64,000 bases of DNA from an uncultured Clostridiaceae bacterium (GTDB taxonomy: Bacteria > Bacillota > Clostridia > TANB77 > CAG-508), in NCBI GenBank assembly GCA_948356915.1, contig CAOJCG010000004.1, positions 32,163-96,162 on the forward strand. Direction: 5' to 3'. The number at the start of each line of letters is the position of its first letter. Positions within the stretch are counted from its first letter, which is position 1. Positions 10,869-39,803 of the stretch are shown here, one piece after another. The notes beneath the pieces are model-generated. The model saw nothing but the letters and a program-made list of their open reading frames with translations, was not told the origin of the DNA and searched no databases. The translations under genes were made by a program, and so were the position numbers.

Positions 10869-11216
10869 ATGAGACCAGAAGATATAATAATAGCACCTGT
10901 TATAACAGAAAAAAGTAATGATAGTATGCAAGAAGGTAAATATACTTTCGAAGTAAACAAAAAAGCTACAAAAGTTGATATTGCAAACGCAGTAGAAAAA
11001 CTATTTGAAGTAAAAGTAATAAAAGTAAACACAGTTACTGTAAAAGGTAAAACAAAAAGAATGGGAAGATATGAAGGAAAAACATCAGACTGGAAAAAAG
11101 CAATCGTAACAATTGATACAAACCCAGGAGAAAAAACATATCTTGCAAAAGGCGGAAAAGCTACAAAAATGACTAAGAAATATAAAGATTCAATAGATGA
11201 ATTTATGGGAGCTTAG
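10869..11216 (+). CDS. rplW: 50S ribosomal protein L23 (with an atypical ~20 aa C-terminal extension)
   Basis: 115 aa; L23 core up to WKKAIVT, then [34 protein letters not shown]. Confidence 0.85.
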
Positions 11217-11220
11217 AAAT

Positions 11221-11409
11221 ATGATTAATTATAAACCAATAAATCCACATGGATTAAGTATAGGAATATGCAAAGACTGGAATTCTGAATGGTATAAAAA
11301 CGAAGATATATCACAAGAAATAGATATTAATCTTGAAAGCGTAAAAAACAATCCTAAATCTCCTATAAATAAAATTGGAAAAGTAAAAGATTGGGATGAA
11401 GAAAGATAA
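11221..11409 (+). CDS. Small ORF encoding a diverged copy of the N-terminus of ribosomal protein S3 (paralogous fragment or pseudogene)
   Basis: MINYKPINPHGLSIGICKDWNSEWYKNEDISQEIDINLE aligns with the rpsC start [39 protein letters not shown]. Shares the nucleotide 14-mer ccacatggattaag with rpsC. Confidence 0.4.
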   Translation: MINYKPINPHGLSIGICKDWNSEWYKNEDISQEIDINLESVKNNPKSPINKIGKVKDWDEER

Positions 11410-11590
11410 AAGTTATCGAGAAATAACTCGGAAAACAAAGAATATCTGCTAATACGAGGCAGGAAAAGAAAACCGTAAATAAAATTAGAAGTTAGCTGTA
11501 GGGGGCTTAATCAGTCAGGAATACTTAAGAGAATTTACCGAATTACGCCCATAAAATGCAAAACTTCCATAAAAAGGAGAGAAAAACAAA

Positions 11591-12418
11591 ATGGGAATGA
11601 AACATTTTAGACCAACAACTCCATCACTAAGAAACATGACAGTTTCTACATTTGATGAAATAACAAAGAAAACTCCTGAAAAATCTTTATTAACAGTAAA
11701 GAAAGAAAAAGCAGGAAGAAACTCATATGGTAGAATAACTGTACGCCATCAAGGTGGAGGAAACAGACAAAAATATAGAATAATTGATTTTAAAAGAAAT
11801 AAAGACGATATGAACGCTACAGTAATAGGAATCGAATACGATCCAAACAGAAGTGCAAATATCGCATTAATCGAATATGAAGATGGAACAAAATCTTACA
11901 TATTAGCACCAGTAGGGTTAACAGACGGAGATAAAGTAGTATCTGGACAAAAAGTAGATATAAAACCAGGTAACTGTATGCCAATAGAAAGCATACCAGT
12001 AGGTACATTAATACACAATATCGAATTAAACCCAGGTCAAGGTGGAAAAATGGTTAGAGCAGCAGGTCAAGAAGCTCAATTAATGGCTAAAGAAGGAAAA
12101 TATGCTCACGTAAGACTTCCATCAGGAGAAATGAGATTAGTTCTAGCAAGATGTAGAGCAACAATCGGAACAGTTGGAAACACAGACCATGAAAATGTAA
12201 AAATAGGAAAAGCAGGAAGAACAAGACATATGGGAATACGTCCAACAGTTAGAGGTTCTGTAATGAACCCAGTAGATCACCCACATGGTGGTGGTGAAGG
12301 TAGAGCACCAGTAGGACACGCAGGACCAATGACACCTTGGGGTAAACCAGCTCTAGGATACAAGACAAGAAAGAAAAATAAACAATCAAACAAAATGATA
12401 GTTAAGAGAAGAAAATAG
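11591..12418 (+). CDS. rplB: 50S ribosomal protein L2
   Basis: 275 aa, canonical L2. Confidence 0.95.
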
Positions 12419-12420
12419 AA

Positions 12421-12545
12421 TAAGTTAGAAATTAGAAGTCAGAAGTCAGAATGAAATGCATTGTATGGGCGACTAGTAGTCGTCCGCACTTCCAAGGGAA
12501 TACCCTAAATTCCGACATCCGACATCAAATTTTCGACACACAACT
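12421..12545. repeat. Heptamer-armed hairpin element (AGAAGTC arrays / TGTAKGGGCGAC hairpin core / inverted GACATCC arrays)
   Basis: agaagtcagaagtcagaa - tgaaatgcattgtatgggcgactagtagtcgtccgcacttccaagggaataccctaaa - ttccgacatccgacatc. Confidence 0.7.
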
Positions 12546-12583
12546 TTTAAAATTAATCAAAAGGGAAAGGAGAAAATTAAAAC

Positions 12584-12859
12584 ATGTCAAGATCAAGCAA
12601 AAAAACTCCATTCATTGCACCAGAATTAATGAAAAGAATTGAAGCAATGAACGAAACAGGAGCTAAAGAAGTATTAAAAACATGGTCAAGAGCTTCTACT
12701 ATATACCCTCAAATGGTAGGACACACAATAGCTGTTCATGATGGTAGAAAACATGTACCTGTTTATATAACAGAAGAAATGATAGGTCATAAATTAGGAG
12801 AATTTGCTCCAACAAGAACTTTCAAAGGTCATGCAGGAGAAAAAACAACTAAAAAATAA
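12584..12859 (+). CDS. rpsS: 30S ribosomal protein S19
   Basis: 91 aa. Confidence 0.95.
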
Positions 12860-12864
12860 ATAAT

Positions 12865-12960
12865 AGTGATACCCCCGCGCGGGACATATCTTGTCACGGG
12901 AGAAATGACCTTAGGGAAAGATGTGTCCCCGTCAGGAACTTAAACAAGATAGAATAAAAC
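12865..12960. repeat. GGGACATATCTT...AAGATGTGTCCC hairpin repeat (family G), copy between rpsS and rplV
   Basis: cccgcgcgggacatatcttgtcacgggagaaatgaccttagggaaagatgtgtccccgtcaggaacttaaacaagataga. Near-identical copies lie at 14915-15000, 15340-15525 (x2), 17875-17995, 18555-18720 (x2), 25742-25850 and 56163-56350 (x2). Confidence 0.75.
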
Positions 12961-13022
12961 ACAAAAAAAGTTAGGAACAAATTAAAATTTCTAACATCCA
13001 ATTAAACAAGGAGGGAAAAAAC

Positions 13023-13382
13023 GTGGAAAACCAAGAAGTTATAATACCAGAAGCAGTAGCAACACTTAAATATGCTAGAATTTCATCAAGAAAAGTTAAA
13101 ATAGTAGCAGATTTAATAAGAGGTAAAAATGTTGACGAAGCTTTAGCAACAGTTAAATTTACACCAAAAGTTGCATCTGAAATAATAGAAAAATTATTAA
13201 AATCAGCAATAGCAAATGCTGAAAACAACCACAATATGGCACATGAAAAATTATATGTAGCTGAAATATATGCAAATCAAGGTCCAACATTAAAAAGAAT
13301 AAGACCAGCAGCAAAAGGTTCAGCAGTTAGAATTCGTAAAAGAACAAGTCATATAACAGTGAAGTTAAGAGAAAGAGAATAA
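13023..13382 (+). CDS. rplV: 50S ribosomal protein L22 (GTG start)
   Basis: 119 aa; RBS GGAGGG. Confidence 0.9.
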
Positions 13383-13389
13383 TAAATAG

Positions 13390-13560
13390 GACAGAAGTCA
13401 GAAGTCAGAAGTCAGAATGAAAGGCATTGTAGGGGCGACTATTTCTTAGCTCTTCGAGCGTTAGCGAGTTAGAGATAAGATATGCGTTAGTGTAGTCGTC
13501 CGCACTTCGAAGAAATTACCCTAAATTCCGACATCCGACATCCGATTTCCGACATCCAAA
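13390..13560. repeat. Heptamer-armed hairpin element (same family; enlarged core loop)
   Basis: (agaagtc)x3 - ...attgtaggggcgact...agtcgtccgcacttcgaagaaattaccctaaa - (tccgaca)x3. Confidence 0.7.
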
Positions 13561-13582
13561 AAACAAGGAGGGAAAACAAAAC

Positions 13583-14242
13583 ATGGGACAAAAAATGGAT
13601 CCACATGGATTAAGAGTTGGTGTAATAAAAGACTGGGACTCAAAATGGTTTGCAAATAAAAAAGATTTTGCTAACTACCTAGTAGAAGACCACAAAATCC
13701 GTGAGTATGTTAAGAAAAAATTATATGTTAGTGGAATTTCAAAAATAGAAATTGAAAGAACTGCTAAATTTGTAAAAGTTAATGTTAACACTGCAAAACC
13801 AGGATTAGTAATTGGTAAAGGTGGAAACTTAGCAGAAAACTTAAAAAATGAATTACAAAAAATGATAGGAAAAGAAGTAAACTTAAATATAGTTGAAGTT
13901 AAAGATGTTGATTTAAATGCACAATTAGTTGCAGAAAACATCGCAGGACAACTAGAAAGAAGAATTTCATTCAGAAGAGCTATGAAACAATGTATGCAAA
14001 AAACTATGAAAGCAGGTGCTTTAGGAATAAAAACTGCAGTATCTGGAAGATTAGGTGGAGCAGACATGGCTAGAACTGAATTCTATAAAGAAGGAACAAT
14101 ACCACTTCAAACATTAAGAGCTGATATAGACTATGGATTTGCAGAAGCAGATACAACATATGGAAAAATCGGTGTAAAAGTTTGGATATATAAAGGAGAA
14201 GTTCTTCCAGCTAAGAAACAAGTGGAAGGAGGAGACAAATAA
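13583..14242 (+). CDS. rpsC: 30S ribosomal protein S3
   Basis: 219 aa, [18 protein letters not shown]... Confidence 0.95.
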
Positions 14243-14670
14243 TGCCATTAATGCCAAAAAGAACAAAATATAGAAAACAACAAAAAGGTAGAAATAGAGG
14301 AAAAGCAACAAGAGGAAATTTCGTATCAGATGGTGAATACGGACTTCAAGCAATAGAAGCAGGGTTAATTACAACAAACCAAATAGAATCAGCCCGTGTT
14401 GCTATGACTCGTTATATAAAAAGAGGTGGAAAAGTTTGGATAAAATTATTTCCAGACAAACCAATAACAAAGAAACCAGCTGAAACTCGTATGGGTAAAG
14501 GTAAAGGTGCCGTAGAATACTGGGTAGCAGCTGTAAAACCAGGTAGAGTAATGTTTGAAATAGCAGGAGTACCAGAGGAAACTGCAAGAGAAGCACTAAG
14601 ACTTGCTTCAATGAAACTATCTGTAAAAACTAAGTTTGTAAAAAAAGAAACTGAAGTAGGTGGTGAATAA
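14242..14670 (+). CDS. rplP: 50S ribosomal protein L16
   Basis: 142 aa; start overlaps the rpsC stop (TAATG). Confidence 0.95.
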
Positions 14671-14671
14671 G

Positions 14672-14875
14672 ATGAAGATAAATAAAATAAAAGAAATGTC
14701 TTCACCAGAACTAGAAAAAGAATTAGGAGAATTAAAATCAGAGCTATTCAAATTAAGATTTAGTTTAGCAACAAATGGATTAGATAATCCTATGAAAATA
14801 AAAGAAGTTAAGAAAGACATTGCAAGAATAAATACAATATTAACACAAAGAAAATTAGCAGAAAAACAAAACTAA
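14672..14875 (+). CDS. rpmC: 50S ribosomal protein L29
   Basis: MKINKIKEMSSPELEKELGELKSELFKLRF...; GTG 14660 is an alternative start. Confidence 0.85.
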   Translation: MKINKIKEMSSPELEKELGELKSELFKLRFSLATNGLDNPMKIKEVKKDIARINTILTQRKLAEKQN

Positions 14876-15011
14876 AAAATATGCGGTGGAAGGGGCTAAG
14901 CGTAGAAAAATTGACATCATTAATTCACACGTGGGGACATATCTTGTCCCAAGTGGAAATGACTTAAAATAAAGATGTGTCCCCATACCGAGGAAAGGAG
15001 ATTCATAAATC

Positions 15012-15275
15012 ATGGAAGAAAGAAATCTTCGTAAAACTTATACAGGAATTGTTAAATCAAATAAAATGGATAAAACAATAGTTGTAGCAGTAGAAACAAG
15101 TGAGAAAAACAAAACATATGGAAAAATTCAAAAAAGAACATATACATTAAAAGCTCATGATGAAAATAATGAATGTGGAATCGGAGATAAAGTAGAAGTA
15201 ATGGAAACAAGACCTTTATCAAAAGATAAAAGATTCAGACTTGTAAAAATAGTAGAAAAGGCAATTATAAAATAA
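15012..15275 (+). CDS. rpsQ: 30S ribosomal protein S17
   Basis: 87 aa. Confidence 0.95.
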
Positions 15276-15339
15276 TAAAGATATTATAACGAGACATATA
15301 TTAATCCAAGAGTGATCTTAAAAGAAAAGATGAGTTCCG

Positions 15340-15525
15340 TCATAAATAATGCGAGGAACCCCGAGTGGGACAATTTAAAGAAATGAATGCCCGGCGTGGG
15401 ACATATCTTATCCTTTAAGGAATACCATGGGGAAAGATGTGTACCCGTTAGAAATTAAAAGAATAAGTAGGGAAAAGATGTGTCCCCGTCAGAAACTAAA
15501 ACAAGATAGAGAAAAGGAGGCCAGC
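15340..15525. repeat. Two tandem family-G hairpin repeats between rpsQ and rplN
   Basis: Two units, each with gggacatatctt(a/g)tc...aaagatgtgt(a/c)ccc followed by gt(c/t)agaaa(c/t)taaaa(c/g)aa. Confidence 0.7.
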
Positions 15526-15530
15526 TAAAA

Positions 15531-15899
15531 ATGGTACAACAACAAACTATATTAAAAGTAGCCGACAATACTGGTGCAAAAGAAATAATGTGCATTAGAT
15601 GTTTAGGTGGTTCATATAGAAAATATGCTAGAGTTGGAGATGTTATAGTTGCTTCTGTTAAATCAGCAACACCAGGTGGAGTTGTAAAAAAAGGTGATGT
15701 TGTAAAAGCAGTAGTAGTAAGAACAGTAAAACCAATAAGAAGAGCAGATGGATCATATGTAAGATTTGATGAAAACGCAGCAGTTATAATAAAAGAAGAT
15801 AAAAACCCAAAAGGAACACGTATATTTGGACCTGTTGCAAGAGAATTAAGAGATAAAGATTATATGAAAATATTATCATTAGCTCCAGAGGTTCTTTAA
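15531..15899 (+). CDS. rplN: 50S ribosomal protein L14
   Basis: 122 aa. Confidence 0.95.
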
Positions 15900-16160
15900 G
15901 CTGTTAACGAAAATGTCTACTAGACATTAGAGTGTTACAGATTAAAGATGCAGGAACTTATAATTTGTTTCCGAGAGAAGCCCTTAGGCTGAAAGAGAAA
16001 TTACAAATTATTAGTTATCGCATGACTGTATAAAGAGTAGTATCTAATTAAAGATGCAAGTGAGCAAAGCGAACTTGCATACCTTAGAAAAGGCTACTTC
16101 TGACTAGCTAAAATAAAATTAAAACCTTAAAATGAAGAAAAGAAGAGGTGAAAAATAAAA

Positions 16161-16469
16161 ATGAAAATAAGAAAAGGTGACAATGTTAAAGTTTTATCAG
16201 GAAATGATAAAGGTAAAACAGGAGAAGTTTTAGAAGTAATACCAAAAACAGAAAAAATAATAGTAAAAGGTATTAATATAAGAAAAAAACATGTTAAACC
16301 AAGAAAACAAGGAGAGGAAGGCGGAATAATACCAGTAGAATGCGCTATTCACTCAAGCAAAGTAAACGTAGTTTGCCCAAAATGCGGAAAAGCTACAAGA
16401 ATTGGTTATGAAATAGAAAAAGATCAAAAAGTACGTGTTTGTAAAAAATGCAACGAAAAAATAAAATAA
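16161..16469 (+). CDS. rplX: 50S ribosomal protein L24
   Basis: 102 aa, KOW motif. Confidence 0.95.
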   Translation: MKIRKGDNVKVLSGNDKGKTGEVLEVIPKTEKIIVKGINIRKKHVKPRKQGEEGGIIPVECAIHSSKVNVVCPKCGKATRIGYEIEKDQKVRVCKKCNEKIK

Positions 16470-16494
16470 TCAGAAAAGGAGGAAAACATAGACC

Positions 16495-17034
16495 ATGGAA
16501 ACATTAAAAGAACAATACATAAACGAAGTAGTTCCAGCAATGATGAAAAAGTTTAACTATAAATCTATAATGGAAGTTCCAAAGTTAGAAAAAATAGTTT
16601 TAAACGTTGGTTTAGGAGATATAAAAGACAATCCAAAATCATTAGAGAATGCTATGAATGATATAAAATTAATTACAGGTCAATCACCAATCATAACAAA
16701 AGCAAAAAAAGCTATAGCTGCTTTTAAAATAAGAGAAGGTGTAAATATGGGATGTAAAGTTACATTAAGAAGTGGAAAAATGTATGATTTCGCATACAAA
16801 CTATTTAATGTAGCACTTCCAAGAGTTAGAGATTTTAGAGGAGTATCAAAAAATTCATTTGATGGTAGAGGAAATTACTCTATGGGTGTTAAAGAACAAC
16901 TAATATTCCCTGAAATCGAATATGACAAAGTAGATAAAGTAAGAGGTATGGATATAATCTTCGTTACAACAGCAAAAACAGACGAAGAAGCAAGAGAATT
17001 ACTAACATTATTAGGAATGCCTTTTAAAGCATAG
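16495..17034 (+). CDS. rplE: 50S ribosomal protein L5
   Basis: 179 aa. Confidence 0.95.
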
Positions 17035-17185
17035 AAGATAGAAGTCAGAAGTCAGAAGTCAGAAGTCAGAATAGTGTAAATATTAAAATGAGATTGTAGG
17101 GGCTTTTCATCGCTCTTAATTACTTCGAAAAAATTACCATAAATTCCGACATCCAACATCAGACATCCGACAGAAGAAAGGAGAA
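17035..17185. repeat. Heptamer-armed hairpin element (same family)
   Basis: (agaagtc)x4 - ...attgtaggggc...cttcgaaaaaattaccataaa - ttccgacatccaacatcagacatccgaca. Confidence 0.7.
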
Positions 17186-17190
17186 AGCCA

Positions 17191-17376
17191 ATGGCTAAAA
17201 AATCTTTAAAAGTAAAACAACAAAGAGATCAAAAATATAAGACAAGAGAATACAATAGATGTAAAATTTGTGGAAGACCACATGCTTATATTAGAAAATT
17301 TGGTATATGCCGTGTATGCTTTAGAGAATTAGCACATAAAGGTGAAATACCAGGAGTTAAAAAAGCAAGTTGGTAA
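17191..17376 (+). CDS. rpsN: 30S ribosomal protein S14 type Z (zinc-binding)
   Basis: 61 aa with CKICGRPH...CRVCFRE. Confidence 0.95.
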
Positions 17377-17408
17377 AATAGAAGCAAGAAAAGGAGGGAA
17401 AAAAGTTA

Positions 17409-17807
17409 ATGAATACAACTGATCCAATAGCAGATATGCTAACAAGAATAAGAAATGCAAACAGTTCAAAGCATAAAACAGTTGATATCCCAGCATCAAA
17501 TATGAAAAAGGCAATAGCTAAAATATTATTTGAAGAAGGATATATAAAATCATTTGAAGAAATAAAAGATGATACTCAAGGAGTTATCAGAATAACAATA
17601 AAATATGATGAAAAAGGTGTTAGAGTAATCGATGGAATAAAAAGAATTAGTAAACCAGGATTAAGAGTATATGCATCTAAAGACGAATTACCACAAGTAC
17701 TAAATGGTTTAGGAATTGCTTTAATATCTACATCAAAAGGAATAAAAACAGATAAACAAGCAAGAGCCGAAGGTTTAGGAGGAGAAGTCCTAGCTTATGT
17801 TTGGTAA
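17409..17807 (+). CDS. rpsH: 30S ribosomal protein S8
   Basis: 132 aa. Confidence 0.95.
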
Positions 17808-18012
17808 TGTAATAAAAGGGAGAATACTATAACTATTTGAACATTAATTCATAAGGGAGGGTACAGGATTTTAAGAACCTAAACCCCGCGTAGAACATAT
17901 CTTGTCACAGAAGAAATGACCATAAGAAAAGATGTGCCCTCATCAGAAACTATAAGAATTAGTGTTAAAGGTAAGGTGTCCCCTGACATTAGAAAAAGGA
18001 GGGAAAACTAAA

Positions 18013-18552
18013 ATGTCAAGAATAGGAAACAAACCTATTACTGTACCAGAAGGTGTAGAAGTAAAATTAGATGGTATGCACTTAACAGTAAAAGGACCTA
18101 AAGGAACATTAGAAAGAGAAATTCATAAAAATATGACTGTTTCAATAGATGGAAATGTTATAACAATAACAAGACCAAATGATGAACCAGAAAATAGAAG
18201 TTTACATGGATTAACAAGAACATTAATACATAACATGATAGAAGGTGTTCTAAACGAATACAAAAAAGAATTACAAATAGTTGGTGTTGGATATAGAGCA
18301 CAATTACAAGGGAAAAAATTAGTAATGAATTTAGGATATTCTCATCCAGTAGAAATGGATGCTCCAGAAGGAATTACATTTGAAGTTCCAAATGCAAACA
18401 CAATTATAGTAAGAGGAATAGATAAAGAAGTAGTTGGTCAAACAGCAGCAGTTGTAAGAACAAAAAGACCACCAGAAGTTTACCATGGAAAAGGTATTAA
18501 ATATTCTGATGAACATATTAGAAGAAAAGAAGGTAAAGCTGGTAAAAAATAA
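18013..18552 (+). CDS. rplF: 50S ribosomal protein L6
   Basis: MSRIGNKPITVPEGVEVKLDG...; RBS AAAGGAGGG. The longer ORF from 17962 runs through a repeat element and is not used. Confidence 0.9.
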   Translation: MSRIGNKPITVPEGVEVKLDGMHLTVKGPKGTLEREIHKNMTVSIDGNVITITRPNDEPENRSLHGLTRTLIHNMIEGVLNEYKKELQIVGVGYRAQLQGKKLVMNLGYSHPVEMDAPEGITFEVPNANTIIVRGIDKEVVGQTAAVVRTKRPPEVYHGKGIKYSDEHIRRKEGKAGKK

Positions 18553-18554
18553 TA

Positions 18555-18720
18555 GTTAGAACCCCGCGCGGGACAATTTAAAGAACCAAATACTCGGCGT
18601 GGGACATATCTTGTCACGGAAGACATGACCATAGGAAAAGATGTGTACCCGTTAGAAATCAAAAGAATGAGTATTAGGGAAAGATGTGTCCCCGTCAGGA
18701 ACTTAAACAAGATACATTTA
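18555..18720. repeat. Two tandem family-G hairpin repeats between rplF and rplR
   Basis: ccccgcgcgggacaatttaaag...gtgggacatatcttgtcacggaagacatgaccataggaaaagatgtgtaccc...gggaaagatgtgtccccgtcaggaacttaaacaagata. Confidence 0.7.
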
Positions 18721-18757
18721 AATTGGCAAAAACTAATTTAAGAAAGGAGAAAAGACT

Positions 18758-19117
18758 ATGATTACTAAAATAGATAGAAAGCTTACAAGAGAAAGAAGAC
18801 ATATTAGAGTTCGCAGAAAAATAAGTGGAACAAGTGAATGTCCAAGACTATGTGTATATAGAAGTAATAAAAACCTATTTGTACAAATAGTAGATGATGT
18901 TAAGCAAACTACATTAGTAAGTGCATCAACACTTGATAAAGAAGTAAAAACAAAGCATGCAAATAAAGAAGCTGCAAAAGAAGTAGGAGCTTTAATTGCG
19001 AAAAGAGCTTTAGAAAAAAATATAAAAAATGTTGTTTACGACAGAGGTGGATACGTATACCACGGTGTAGTAAAAGAACTAGCAGAAGCTGCAAGAGAAG
19101 CAGGACTAGAGTTCTAA
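18758..19117 (+). CDS. rplR: 50S ribosomal protein L18
   Basis: 119 aa. Confidence 0.95.
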
Positions 19118-19253
19118 AAAAATAAAATAAAGGAATGTAGGGGCACCGTTTGTGGGAATACCACTTTGGAAATGACACCACTGTGCCCAAGGTAGAAGAT
19201 ATATATAATTCTATAATTTCTAATATCCAAAACAGAAAAGGAGGAAAATAAAA

Positions 19254-19745
19254 GTGCAAACAGAAAATACATCTGAATTAAAAGAAAAAGTAGTTGCTAT
19301 TAACAGAGTTGCAAAAGTTGTTAAAGGTGGTAGAACATTCAGATTTAGTGCTGTAGTTGTAGTTGGAGACGAAGCTGGACACATTGGTGTTGGTAACGGA
19401 AAAGCAGCAGAAGTTCCAGATGCAATCAAAAAAGCAATAGAAGAAGCTAAAAAGAATTTAATAGAAGTTCCAGTAGTAGGAACAACAATACCACATGAAT
19501 ATCTTGGAAAATTTGGTAGTGCTACAGTAATGCTAAAACCAGCAGCAGAAGGTACAGGACTTATAGCAGGTGGTAGCGTAAGACCAGTTCTAGAACTTGC
19601 AGGTTACAAAGATATTCGTACAAAAGTACTAGGAACAAACAATCCAAGAAACGTAGTATATGCTACAATAGAAGGATTAAAGAAAATGCAAACAATAGAG
19701 CAAGTAGCTAAAAAAAGAGGAAAAAAAGTAGAAGAAATATTATAA
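19254..19745 (+). CDS. rpsE: 30S ribosomal protein S5 (GTG start)
   Basis: 163 aa. Confidence 0.9.
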
Positions 19746-19774
19746 TTTTTTAACAAGGAGGTGTAATCTCAGAA

Positions 19775-20209
19775 ATGAAATTAGACGAATTAAAACCAGC
19801 GCAAAAAACAGAAAGCAAGAAAAGAGTAGGACGTGGAATAGGTTCAGGTCTAGGAAAAACATCTGGTAGAGGTCATAAAGGACAAAAAGCAAGATCAGGT
19901 GGCGGAGTTAGACGTGGATTTGAAGGTGGTCAAACACCACTATATAGAAGATTACCAAAAAGAGGATTTACAAATATACACGCTAAAAACTATACAGAAG
20001 TAACTTTAACAATGCTTAATAAAGCTACAACTGAAGAAGTTACAGCTGAAAGCCTAATAGCAGATGGAATCATTTCAAAAGCAAATGATGGAATAGTAAT
20101 CCTTGCAACAGGTACTTTAGACAAAAAATTAACTGTTAAAGCTGTAAGATTCACTAAAAAAGCTAAAGAGACAATCGAAGCTTTAGGTGGAAAGACAGAG
20201 GTGATTTAG
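19775..20209 (+). CDS. rplO: 50S ribosomal protein L15. No L30 gene lies between rpsE and rplO.
   Basis: 144 aa, Gly/Arg-rich N-terminus. Only 29 bp separate the rpsE stop from the rplO start. Confidence 0.95.
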
Positions 20210-21526
20210 TTGTTTAAAACATTAAAAAATGCTTTAAAAACACCAGATGTTAGAAAAAGATTAATGTACACATTAATTCTAATAGTAGTGTTTAGATTAG
20301 GATGTTATATAACTGTACCTGGAGTAAATTCATTCCAGTTAGCAGAAGCTTTTAGTGGGCAAGGAATAGGGTCATTAATAGACTTAATCTCAGGAGGAGC
20401 TTTCTCAAGATTATCTATATTTGCAATGTCAATTAGCCCATATATCACAGCTTCAATTGTTATTCAATTACTAGCAATGGTAATACCAGCACTAGAAAGA
20501 TTAACAAAAGAAGGTGGAGAAGAAGGTAGAAGCAAAATAAACCGTTATACAAAAATGCTTACAGTAGTACTAGCATTAGTAGAAGGTTTAGGAATATACC
20601 TATCATATAAAAATTCAGGAATATTCATAAATTCAGAATTTATAACAGGTTTAACAGTAGTTATTTCATTAATGGCAGGAACAGCAATATTAATGTGGCT
20701 TGGAGACCAAATAACAAACAAAGGAATTGGTAATGGAATATCAGTAATTATCTTTGTTGGTATTATAGCAGGACTTCCAAGTGCAGTAACAACAATATGG
20801 AATTTAATATTCACAGCAGTAGGTTTCTCAACAACAGGACTTCTTACTGCGATAGGAATAATAATAGGTGCTATTTTGTTAGTAGCAGGAGTTGTATTTG
20901 TACAACAAGCAGAACGTAGAGTACCAGTGCAATATTCAAAAAGAGTTGTAGGAAGAAAAATGGTAGGGGCACAAAATACACATATACCATTAAAACTTGT
21001 AATGGCAGGTGTAATGCCAGTAATCTTTGCAAGTAGTTTTATGACATTCCCAGCAATGATTATTCAAATGTTTGTAAGTGACATAGCTACAAAAACAGGT
21101 TTCTGGGCAGGAGTATATAAATTCTCAATTGCAACATCAACATCAAATGTTCCTGTTGGGTATTCAATAGCAAATGCAATAGTGTACTTACTATTAATAT
21201 TAGGATTCACATACTTCTATACTTATGCTACATTCAATCCAGCAGAAGTATCAAACAATATAAAGAAAAATGGTGGATTCATACCAGGAATAAGAGCTGG
21301 AAAACCAACAACAGAATATTTATCATCAATAATATCAAAAATAACATTATTTGGTGGAATATTCTTATCAGTAATAGCAGTAATACCAATGTTATTAAGG
21401 TTTACAACACTAAATCTAGCATTTGGAGGAACATCAATATTAATCGTAGTTGGTGTAGCTTTAGAAACAGTACAACAATTAGAATCACAATTAGTAATGA
21501 GACATTACAAAGGATTCTTAGAATAA
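20210..21526 (+). CDS. secY: Preprotein translocase subunit SecY (TTG start)
   Basis: 438 aa, 10 TM, canonical SecY. Confidence 0.95.
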   Translation: MFKTLKNALKTPDVRKRLMYTLILIVVFRLGCYITVPGVNSFQLAEAFSGQGIGSLIDLISGGAFSRLSIFAMSISPYITASIVIQLLAMVIPALERLTKEGGEEGRSKINRYTKMLTVVLALVEGLGIYLSYKNSGIFINSEFITGLTVVISLMAGTAILMWLGDQITNKGIGNGISVIIFVGIIAGLPSAVTTIWNLIFTAVGFSTTGLLTAIGIIIGAILLVAGVVFVQQAERRVPVQYSKRVVGRKMVGAQNTHIPLKLVMAGVMPVIFASSFMTFPAMIIQMFVSDIATKTGFWAGVYKFSIATSTSNVPVGYSIANAIVYLLLILGFTYFYTYATFNPAEVSNNIKKNGGFIPGIRAGKPTTEYLSSIISKITLFGGIFLSVIAVIPMLLRFTTLNLAFGGTSILIVVGVALETVQQLESQLVMRHYKGFLE

Positions 21527-21540
21527 AAATAAACAATAAA

Positions 21541-39301: not shown

Positions 39302-39385
39302 TAAATTTGTTGTAGGGGCTTAATCGGTTAGGAATACCAAGGAGAATTTACCGAATTACGCCCTAAATATATTAAAATTAATTTA

Positions 39386-39655
39386 GAGATAAATGTGTTA
39401 AATAGTCCGCTCCCAGGAGGTTTAATTTATTTTTTTAAAATTTAATTCCTAGCCTCTTAACTCAACTCTAAGTAAAATATTCCGTTATACTCCATATTTA
39501 ACTTAGAGTAAGCGGTCCCCACCGCCTTAACGGAATATTCAATTTTAAAAAAATAAATCAAACCTCCCTCGCGCTACTCTATATGTTAAGAATACTACTA
39601 TTTTAAAAATAAGAAATAAAATTTGAAAATTAGGTAAGATTTAAAAATTAAATAA
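39386..39655. mobile_element. MITE-like inverted-repeat-bounded element, copy 2 (upstream of proS)
   Basis: Same terminal sequences as copy 1, including gtccgctcccaggaggtttaatttattttttt and aaaaaaataaatcaaacctccctcgcgctactctatatgtt. Confidence 0.55.
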
Positions 39656-39803
39656 GAAAAGAAAATAAAAGGAAATTGAAGATTAGAAATGATTGTAATG
39701 GAGTGCTATCAACACGTCAGTTCTTCGAAGAGATTACCTGAATTCCAACATCCAACTTCTAACTTCCAACTTCCATAAAATAAAAAAGGAGAGAAAACAA
39801 AAA

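Follow-up and report, generated by a model that had tools for sequence, protein, structure and literature searches.

What is a palindromic sequence of about a hundred nucleotides doing, in copy after copy, between genes that normally leave each other almost no room? Few operon arrangements in bacteria are as tightly packed or as conserved as the S10–spc–alpha cluster of ribosomal protein (r-protein) genes. We analysed a stretch of 64,000 nucleotides from an uncultured Clostridiaceae bacterium (the window), in which several junctions of this cluster are filled by such a sequence. The window has 29% GC, and its genes lie nearly all on the + strand.

A hairpin between rpsS and rplV

The gap between rpsS and rplV holds the copy that we use as a reference.

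12858..12952, + strand: type II element, reference copy, in the rpsS/rplV gap; 66.4 bits
12881..12929, + strand: core hairpin of the reference copy; −27.4 kcal/mol, z −3.0, pair probabilities 0.79–1.0

The element consists of a AAATAATAG box that overlaps the rpsS stop codon (12857–12859), TGATA, the clamp CCCCGCGC (12873–12880), the hairpin, CGTCAGG and the tail AACTTAAACAAGATAG (12937–12952). The 5' arm GGGACATATCTT (12881–12892) and the 3' arm AAGATGTGTCCC (12918–12929) enclose a 25-nt loop, and the clamp contributes three more pairs (GCG/CGU) past a 1-nt bulge. These letters agree with a preliminary description of 12865–12960 as a clamp, a 12-bp stem, a loop of about 25 nt and a tail. Across the family the stem is GGGACAUAUCUU/AAGAUGUGUCCC, 13–15 bp long and reaching 2–3 pairs past the 12-mer arms, with a conserved U.G wobble and a variable loop of 24–29 nt. 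The whole hairpin spans 47–53 nt, and an element measures about 95–120 nt, or up to about 150 nt where it is partly duplicated.

Copies in the window and their two architectures

The 12-mers of the 5' and 3' arms have 22 and 19 matches in the window at up to two mismatches, against 3.9 and 1.9 in shuffled sequence, and none of 100 shuffles gave counts as high. A covariance model built on the hairpin (R1) was run over both strands of the window. It detects eight strong copies, all on the + strand (46.7–66.4 bits, E 1e-11 to 1e-16), starting at 12871, 14924, 15388, 17882, 18591, 25754, 56170 and 56254, together with two marginal, decayed copies at 8916 (E 0.11) and 15281 (E 0.5). At the same places on the − strand the score is merely 13–28 bits. 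The hairpin is the minimum-energy fold in six of the eight firm copies; at 17882 and 56254 it forms in part or not at all. Its folding z-scores range from −2 to −4.6. Arm counts, model matches and folds all support the earlier view that this is a true repeat family built on a strong hairpin. The figure of about 11 copies given with it is fair for eight firm and two or three decayed copies, less a match at 8535 that we rejected as chance.

Two architectures share this one stem, a point that the preliminary description missed. Type II, which is more frequent in the window than type I (12858, 15359, 17884, 18562, 25743 and 56159), is laid out as a AAUAAUAG box, 5 nt, a CCCSGCGY clamp, the hairpin, CGUYAG and the tail AACUUAAACAAGAUAG; this tail is fixed, at a distance of 63 nt from where the 5' arm begins. 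In two type II copies the 3' arm and tail are duplicated with a period of 41–43 nt, and a solo clamp lies upstream. Type I has a 5' motif of the approximate form aAGGGTAAYCACnnnTTCAYAAGGGnAG, the hairpin, a 3' flank YTKACA, an A-rich spacer and the SD. It is represented in the window by the copy at 14904 and, in decayed form, at 8896, 15281 and around 17830–17990. A clamp and a AACTTAAACAAGATAG tail had been ascribed to each copy. That holds for type II, but the type I hairpin at 14934 has neither; the clamp is present at eight sites in the window, two of them solo boxes (15359 and 18562), and the tail at five or six.

8896..8980, + strand: decayed type I element in the rpsJ leader, directly 5' of the SD; E 0.11; 5' motif GAACACTTACTCATAAGGAGAG, then AGGACATACCTT ... 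AAGGTACCCCTGACA
14904..14989, + strand: type I element before rpsQ; 62.7 bits, z −4.55; 5' motif TTGACATCATTAATTCACACGTG, hairpin 14934–14983, 3' flank CATACC; SD and start codon (15012) 28 nt past the stem
15281..15348, + strand: decayed type I hairpin, GAGACATATATT / AAGATGAGTTCC, just past the rpsQ stop; E 0.5
15359..15509, + strand: composite type II before rplN, from R1 match, fold and repeat analysis; solo clamp 15359–15371, clamp 15390–15397, 5' arm 15398–15409, 3' arm copies 15434–15445 and 15475–15486, tail 15494–15509
17830..17990, + strand: nested copy before rplF; 46.7 bits; decayed type II (clamp 17884, arms 17892–17903 and 17929–17940) within a split type I (5' motif GAACATTAATTCATAAGGGAG ... 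3' remnant AAGGTGTCCCCTGACA); junction in the relative L146 empty, 28 nt
18562..18715, + strand: composite type II before rplR, from R1 match and fold; junction empty in L146; solo clamp 18562–18574, clamp 18593–18600, 5' arm 18601–18612, 3' arm copies 18638–18649 and 18681–18692, tail 18700–18715
25743..25836, + strand: type II element in the rpsM/rpsK gap; 60 bits; box AATAATCG, clamp 25756–25763, arms 25764–25775 and 25801–25812, tail 25821–25836
56159..56251, + strand: type II element after ftsX; 65.5 bits, z −4.07; box AATAATAG, clamp 56172–56179, arms 56180–56191 and 56217–56228, tail 56236–56251
56264..56373, + strand: diverged copy adjoining the 56159 element; 47.8 bits; arms GGGACATATTTT / AAGACGTGTCCC, then decayed 3' modules; the gene of a PcsB-like M23 peptidase is next (start 56382)

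All copies in the window are intergenic, lie on the + strand and precede r-protein genes or the PcsB-like gene that follows ftsEX. Their flanks are r-protein genes, or ftsX and the PcsB-like M23 peptidase gene, as expected from the earlier statement that they sit between translation-machinery or division genes. What had been described as frequent tandem pairs is a mixture. The copies at 56170 and 56254 are indeed adjacent, those at 15281 and 15388 are a decayed copy beside an intact one, and part of the effect is the internal duplication of 3' arm and tail (15430/15471 and 18634/18677).

Stem covariation in related gut Clostridia

Gut metagenomes were scanned with both exact arms, which gave 59 loci (human, rumen, marmot and shrew gut). 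A genome collection of 596 Gb was scanned with the 14-base pattern GGGACATATCTTNTC, which is too short: 117 of its 120 loci are chance matches. The remaining three (L033, L048 and L062) contain the hairpin and belong to MAGs labelled uncultured Clostridia or Clostridium. Loci with the hairpin, in metagenomes and MAGs, have 26–37% GC, and viral contigs gave no matches. R1 detects further copies in these loci, roughly 15 secondary ones, chosen by the model and not by the pattern. Because exact arms were required, the conservation of the arms across loci is partly a matter of ascertainment, and only these secondary copies are unbiased in this respect.

In the unbiased copies, paired changes of the stem convert A-U to U-A (L062:2491) and U-A to C-G (L048:6699). 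Further paired changes are C-G to U-A (L174:3663) and double or multiple replacements (L163:2484, L062:5451). Over 52 type I sequences 98.2% of cells are paired, and compensatory change occurs at 4 of 13 pairs (21 cells), which none of 500 shuffles match. The closing pair alternates between G-C and A-U (12 of the 52 sequences), and the U.G wobble is kept in 50. The variants form subfamilies, in which the paired changes are common to several copies of one genome. Taken together, the covariation argues that the stem is real and selected.

Rfam release 15 has nothing at gathering score in the window and, at E≤5 over 8400–19000, nothing that overlaps the copies; the one relevant weak hit in that interval is the S10-Clostridia leader at 8670–8764. 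A literature search for the arm sequences returned unrelated eukaryotic primers only. Without an Rfam match or a paper that matches by sequence, the family is apparently undescribed, and the matches indicate that it is spread widely in related uncultured gut Clostridia. As an easily recognised new repeat family, it could be of use for strain typing and assembly checks in these organisms.

Alternative pairing and termination

The preliminary description proposed mutually exclusive structures, as in attenuators or riboregulators, in which the 5' arm would pair either with the 3' arm or with the ACAAGAUAG tail further downstream. In three copies (12881, 18601 and 25764) AUCUUGU can form 7 pairs with ACAAGAU. 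When forced, this pairing yields −19.6 kcal/mol against −27.4 kcal/mol for the hairpin, a loss of 7.8 kcal/mol, and in the ensemble it has a probability of about 0. The tail remains ACAAGATAG no matter whether G or A follows the arm (A is the partner in L162, L148, L146 and 56180) and also when the arm mutates (L146:1263, L146:2838), and no covariation of the tail with the 5' arm is seen. Type I copies are without any tail. No terminator or SD-sequestering helix hangs on the choice of pairing, and pairing of the SD does not change systematically between the minimum-energy fold and folds with the 5' arm forced unpaired. A switch of this kind is very improbable.

The suggestion that the elements are intrinsic terminators between cistrons, to which the stable, GC-clamped stem would lend itself, is scarcely credible. 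The sequence following the stem is CGTCAGGAAC or CTTACAAA, with no T-run, and CGUCAGGAAC or CUUACAAA stands past the stem in place of a U-tract. Terminator prediction gives nothing on the + strand at any copy; its only hits at the elements are on the − strand, at the clamp. Essential genes lie downstream in the same operon. The elements are neither attenuators nor terminators.

A different pairing involves the 5' motif of type I. In about 20 of the 52 type I copies this motif complements the loop of its own copy markedly better than it does the loops of other subfamilies. The resulting fold lies within 3–7 kcal/mol in a few copies, and in a few leaders (L161, L146:3813) the motif–loop hairpin is the predicted minimum-energy fold. 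Being interleaved with the main stem, such pairing would suggest a pseudoknot or a switch. It has no conserved register, with 42–58% paired against 33–52% expected. This residue keeps a functional-RNA reading alive, as a doubtful possibility. We rejected a long-range helix between GGTAA of the 5' motif and TTACC of the 3' flank, which shows many mismatches on inspection and is attractive in a few cases (L062:5953, L179). The 5' motif and the YTGACA flank were also rejected as promoter elements; a reading of the sequence shows no suitably spaced −10, and the only −10-like box lies on the start codon.

Position and orientation of the copies

None of 87 distinct copies lies inside a genuine gene, in sampled DNA that is 82% coding, and wherever a downstream gene can be called, the element is co-oriented with it. 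The stem usually ends 20–50 nt before the start codon (20–34 nt in most type I copies), at a median distance of 55 nt from the upstream stop. The elements occupy the few bases from stop codon to SD or the SD-proximal end of a 5' UTR. The earlier placement of the copies after r-protein genes and before the next RBS is therefore accurate in that they lie past one cistron and ahead of the next RBS. Random placement on both strands and inside genes, which was to be the mark of a purely selfish element, is not observed: no copy interrupts a real gene and all are sense.

Downstream genes include tuf, dnaK and clpX (translation and protein folding), ackA, uppS, nrdG, yabP, ybaB, about 15 different r-protein genes, and the genes of a pilin-like protein and a 690-aa membrane protein. 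An r-protein autoregulatory leader was rejected because the same stem precedes about 15 r-protein genes plus tuf, dnaK, ackA, clpX, uppS and nrdG.

All copies are on the G-rich strand (skew +0.09 to +0.28 in loci with any opposite-strand ORF), which in the sampled loci also holds about 95% of all coding sequence, so that orientation relative to replication and to transcription is inseparable here. Given this coding bias, one and the same orientation is expected from insertion coupled to replication and from selection acting on the transcript. Nearness to the SD is also partly forced, since a compact operon offers no viable insertion point but the few bases between stop codon and SD. Gaps of this kind also hold repeats of other, unrelated families.

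A promoter that matches the consensus at 12 of 12 positions (8626–8654) and a terminator (21538–21563) are separated by 13 kb. No near-consensus (11–12 of 12) promoter match is found on the + strand between them; weaker matches of 9–10 of 12 are scattered through 8626–21563, and overall there is no enrichment of promoter-like sites (67, with 81 expected). Since there is no near-consensus internal promoter and no + strand terminator at the copies, consensus scans place the window copies of the S10–spc stretch very probably within one polycistronic mRNA. In most folds the SD is left unpaired by the stem, and in some the downstream fold engaged it.

Turnover at orthologous junctions

We compared the S10–spc junctions of 12 loci from about ten related genomes, in which the genes are 74–96% identical to those of the window. 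Orthologous junctions are patchily occupied, with the hairpin in some genomes and not in others; empty junctions are mostly 20–45 nt long and filled ones 120–260 nt. L146 has 85–96% nucleotide identity to the window in genes, yet six of the eight occupied junctions differ, with clean filled/empty pairs at rplX-rplE, rpsN-rpsH, rpsH-rplF and rplF-rplR. A type II element lies within a type I element at 17830–17990 and also at the rplR-rpsE junction of L146, and in L146 type II replaces the 3' half of a type I copy. Internal-deletion remnants (L152, L062) have the 5' motif fused to ..GTGTCCC-YTGACA, and solo clamps and duplicated 3' modules are other signs of turnover.

Loops from different sites of one genome have a mean identity of 0.70; for the same site in different genomes the mean is 0.60, with a background of 0.59. 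For the 5' flank the corresponding values are 0.66, 0.64 and 0.60. Such very fast gain and loss at orthologous junctions is the behaviour of a mobile repeat, and, read from these comparisons, the pattern is one of a proliferating repeat with birth and death and not of individually conserved regulatory sites. In this clade the S10–spc–alpha cluster holds kilobases of repeat-derived spacer that turn over from one close relative to the next without breakage of the operon. Such turnover is a natural experiment that bears on the degree of translational coupling and spacing required by these operons.

Mobility machinery and known repeat families

No transposase or RAYT-like gene, Y1 included, was found among 30 ORFs scanned. 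The sole transposase seen belongs to the IS110 family (L127) and is not adjacent to a copy. The four clean filled/empty junctions between the window and L146 show no consistent target-site duplication; ATA or ATAG is present at some junction ends, but AATAATAG seems to belong to the element itself. The two arms could function as inverted repeats, and no parent IS was found.

Repetitive extragenic palindromes (REPs) are palindromes of 20–40 bp with a stem of 6–13 bp and a loop of 4–5 nt (PMC3733652). REP and BIME sequences carry GTAG and CGTC tags (PMC3733652, PMC3333891); REPs lie near the 3' end of the upstream ORF, at a variable distance from the downstream ORF, and often form inverted dimers (PMC3733652, PMC3333891). 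The survey of REPs does not mention Firmicutes or Clostridia (PMC3733652). The elements described here resemble REP/BIME in being short, high-copy, co-transcribed extragenic palindromes with conserved stem irregularities, subfamilies defined by paired stem changes and fast turnover. GTAG stands at the 5' foot in 13 of 52 type I copies, overlapping the two outer pairs (G[TAG]AG precedes the stem in 25 of 52), and CGTC or CGTT follows most type II stems. Unlike REPs, the hairpin is about 50 nt long, with a loop of 24–29 nt and conserved flanking modules. Copies face one way, abut the downstream SD and form no inverted pair, and a RAYT gene was not seen among the 30 ORFs. The family thus departs from the REP definition in size, loop length, location and dimer organisation, and the tag is only partly present.

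Correia/NEMIS of Neisseria, ERIC of enterobacteria and BOX, RUP and SPRITE of pneumococcus are bacterial MITEs that are transcribed into mRNA. Some are targets of RNase III or RNase E, or stabilise the mRNA. Their insertions have either orientation and lie at varied distances from genes, usually with target-site duplications and known parent ISs or transposases. Our elements are likewise non-autonomous, lie near genes, form stable RNA hairpins and include nested, truncated or composite copies. They differ in having one orientation and in that no consistent duplication, parent IS or adjacent transposase was found.

In the MIRUs of Mycobacterium, small ORFs overlap the flanking stop and start codons. 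The present family shares with MIRUs an intercistronic location within operons and one orientation relative to transcription. A MIRU-like coupling mini-ORF that begins at the ATG of the 3' arm was rejected: such frames end near the next start (within −12 to +4 of it) in 30% of cases against 16–18% for control frames, and covarying variants replace the ATG by AAG, GTG or GAG. RNase III hairpins between the early genes of phage T7, and the 5' stem-loop stabilisers in the ermC and aprE leaders of Bacillus, provide a plausible functional analogy, as stem-loops that are repeated, intercistronic or at the 5' end and upstream of a free SD; here, in contrast, gain and loss of elements are too rapid for every copy to be necessary. 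The nearest class is that of REP/BIME and transcribed MITEs. Given these departures from REPs and MIRUs and the Rfam result, we file the family as a new form of intergenic palindromic repeat that behaves like a co-transcribed REP or MITE hairpin, under no named family.

Origin and possible role of the repeat

The best reading of the comparisons is that the family is a sense-oriented, SD-proximal mobile hairpin repeat carried in mRNA, real and of a known general kind. To the fuller account, in which these are lineage-specific non-coding palindromic repeats, a proliferating, co-transcribed hairpin of REP/MITE-like character, we give about an even chance. The elements would spread as DNA through a hairpin-dependent step carried out by a putative enzyme. 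Such a step would account for loops that drift around a stem that retains its sequence and its single mismatch. Once transcribed in the operon mRNA, the stem would fold 10–25 nt upstream of the SD and leave it free. The effect on expression would probably be small, with the elements separating adjacent cistrons. After an endonucleolytic cut upstream, the hairpin could form a 5'-proximal block to 5'–3' decay, possibly acting as a 5' stabiliser or insulator. If purely selfish, the element would be a mobile repeat with an unusually narrow niche, from the stop codon to the next SD. We count against the mobile reading that the 30 ORFs contain no transposase or RAYT gene and that no target-site duplication is clear.

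Selection on RNA function could equally account for the strict sense orientation, for the short distance to the SD and for the conservation of 24 stem bases across species. It is possible, if doubtful, that the element is a selected cis-acting mRNA element whose hairpin is the recognition site of a putative endoribonuclease or RNA-binding protein. Such a factor would cut or mark the r-protein polycistron ahead of individual cistrons, giving protective 5' stems, or co-regulate translation-machinery genes. This would fit copies that are 100% sense, a stem 20–34 nt from the start codon in most type I copies, R1 scores of 47–66 bits on the + strand against 13–28 on the −, and targets enriched for tuf, dnaK, ackA, clpX and about 15 r-protein genes. 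The antisense strand has A.C where the transcript has U.G, so that with U.G kept in 50 of 52 sequences, only the sense transcript has a stem free of that mismatch. The compensatory changes, stem bases that at the same sites in different species are far more conserved than the loops, and the preference of the 5' motif for its own loop (about 20 of 52 type I copies) point the same way. However, junction occupancy varies among close relatives, and many copies are decayed or deleted, so that no individual copy is required. Copies are closer to others of the same genome than to their positional counterparts elsewhere, and the same kind of gap is also occupied by the unrelated repeat families. One-sided stem changes do not favour G.U over A.C (2 versus 5), and the 5' motif/loop pairing lacks a conserved register.

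We consider it unlikely that the elements act as cistron punctuation, in which a putative clade-specific endoribonuclease or RNA-binding protein would read the stem with its U.G and cut or mark the 13-kb S10–spc polycistron ahead of chosen cistrons. Downstream mRNAs would then keep a protective 5' stem, and the element would spread because of that function, as a natural counterpart of engineered Csy4-hairpin insulators. Should a dedicated factor recognise the hairpin, it would represent a new punctuation of polycistronic mRNA and a ready-made insulator part.

A role of the palindrome in DNA, as proposed for REP/BIME, is quite improbable. It would be a putative site for gyrase, a nucleoid protein or a recombinase, with a binding or structural role in highly transcribed leading-strand regions. 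The palindrome has a conserved sequence, its copies are concentrated in heavily transcribed operons, and GTAG before the stem in 13 of 52 type I copies recalls the tagged REPs (PMC3733652). Two other local repeat families also start with GTAGGGG. Against such a site, the arms lie 24–29 bp apart, which is awkward for a dimeric binder of duplex DNA, and they differ systematically at one position (T versus C), a difference that would be pointless in a symmetric site.

Further repeat families and inserts between genes

The window contains a second intercistronic repeat family, unrelated to the hairpin family. Its core, GTAGGGGCGACTA..GTAGTCGTCCGC, is flanked by (AGAAGTC)n arrays on the left and (TCCGACA)n arrays on the right. 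Copies of this family, together with those of a third one, GTAGGGGCTTAATCGGTTAGGAA...GAATTTACCGAATTACGCCC, are located at the following positions.

9461-9561, heptamer-array family
12406-12545, heptamer-array family
13372-13560, heptamer-array family
17026-17177, heptamer-array family
26417-26484, heptamer-array family
39722-39776, heptamer-array family
52744-52899, heptamer-array family
11502-11566, third family
24583-24647, third family
39315-39379, third family

The heptamer-array copy at 12425-12545 is predicted to fold into a single long imperfect hairpin (-31.4 kcal/mol, z -3.5). In the close relative L146, the corresponding junctions lack this family. The third family, which also carries GTAGGGG at its start, has weak predicted folding (z about 0 to -1). 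In addition, a 140-nt intergenic stretch without an Rfam match is present in two far-apart copies, 3780-3919 and 39479-39616, with an identity of 83-86%.

Further long inserts of 200-390 nt can be observed at the rpsN-rpsH junctions of L062, L177 and L176, all loci of relatives, and at the rpmC-rpsQ junction of L146. They contain common motifs such as GCACATTTTCG...CGATGTACA. As these inserts too lie at ribosomal-protein junctions, several repeat families are in competition for one type of site.

Read in antisense, the clamp of the type II hairpin element and its AATAATAG box resemble a terminator, with a hairpin and then a T-run (12869-12887 and 15387-15404, - strand). A type II element inserted in reverse might end transcription of the operon, and the orientation bias of the elements could be due in part to this.

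Ribosomal-protein leader match and secY-adk insert

Shortly 3' of the 12/12 consensus promoter (8626-8654) and 5' of a decayed type I copy, the region 8670-8764 matches the S10-Clostridia ribosomal-protein leader below threshold (26.3 bits vs a gathering score of 35.1, E 0.05). An insert of variable content separates secY from adk.

21538-22756, secY-adk insert, with a DUF2442 gene and a 250-aa ORF without a Pfam match
21538-21563, bidirectional terminator
21647-21675, promoter of the insert

The same spot holds different inserts in relatives: 889 nt in L048 and 1389 nt in L157, the latter with a WG-repeat protein gene on the opposite strand.

Other loci

The region 49491-50479 contains a nuclease gene preceded by repeats.

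49491-49519, consensus promoter TTGACA-17-TATAAT
49576-49679, two tandem 52-nt units, 98% identical
3' of the units, T-rich hairpin
3' of the hairpin, ORF encoding a PBECR4 nuclease domain (E 2e-33)

With a repeat RNA ahead of a nuclease, the arrangement is reminiscent of a type III toxin-antitoxin locus.

In the related locus L127, an IS110-family transposase gene (8063-9220, - strand; DEDD_Tnp_IS110, E 2e-40) is separated by ~7.5 kb from the hairpin copy of that locus, to which it is not adjacent. In the window, ftsE-ftsX is followed by two tandem PcsB-like paralogues (56382-58761), each combining a coiled coil with an M23 peptidase, which have a 245-nt stretch in common with 71% identity.
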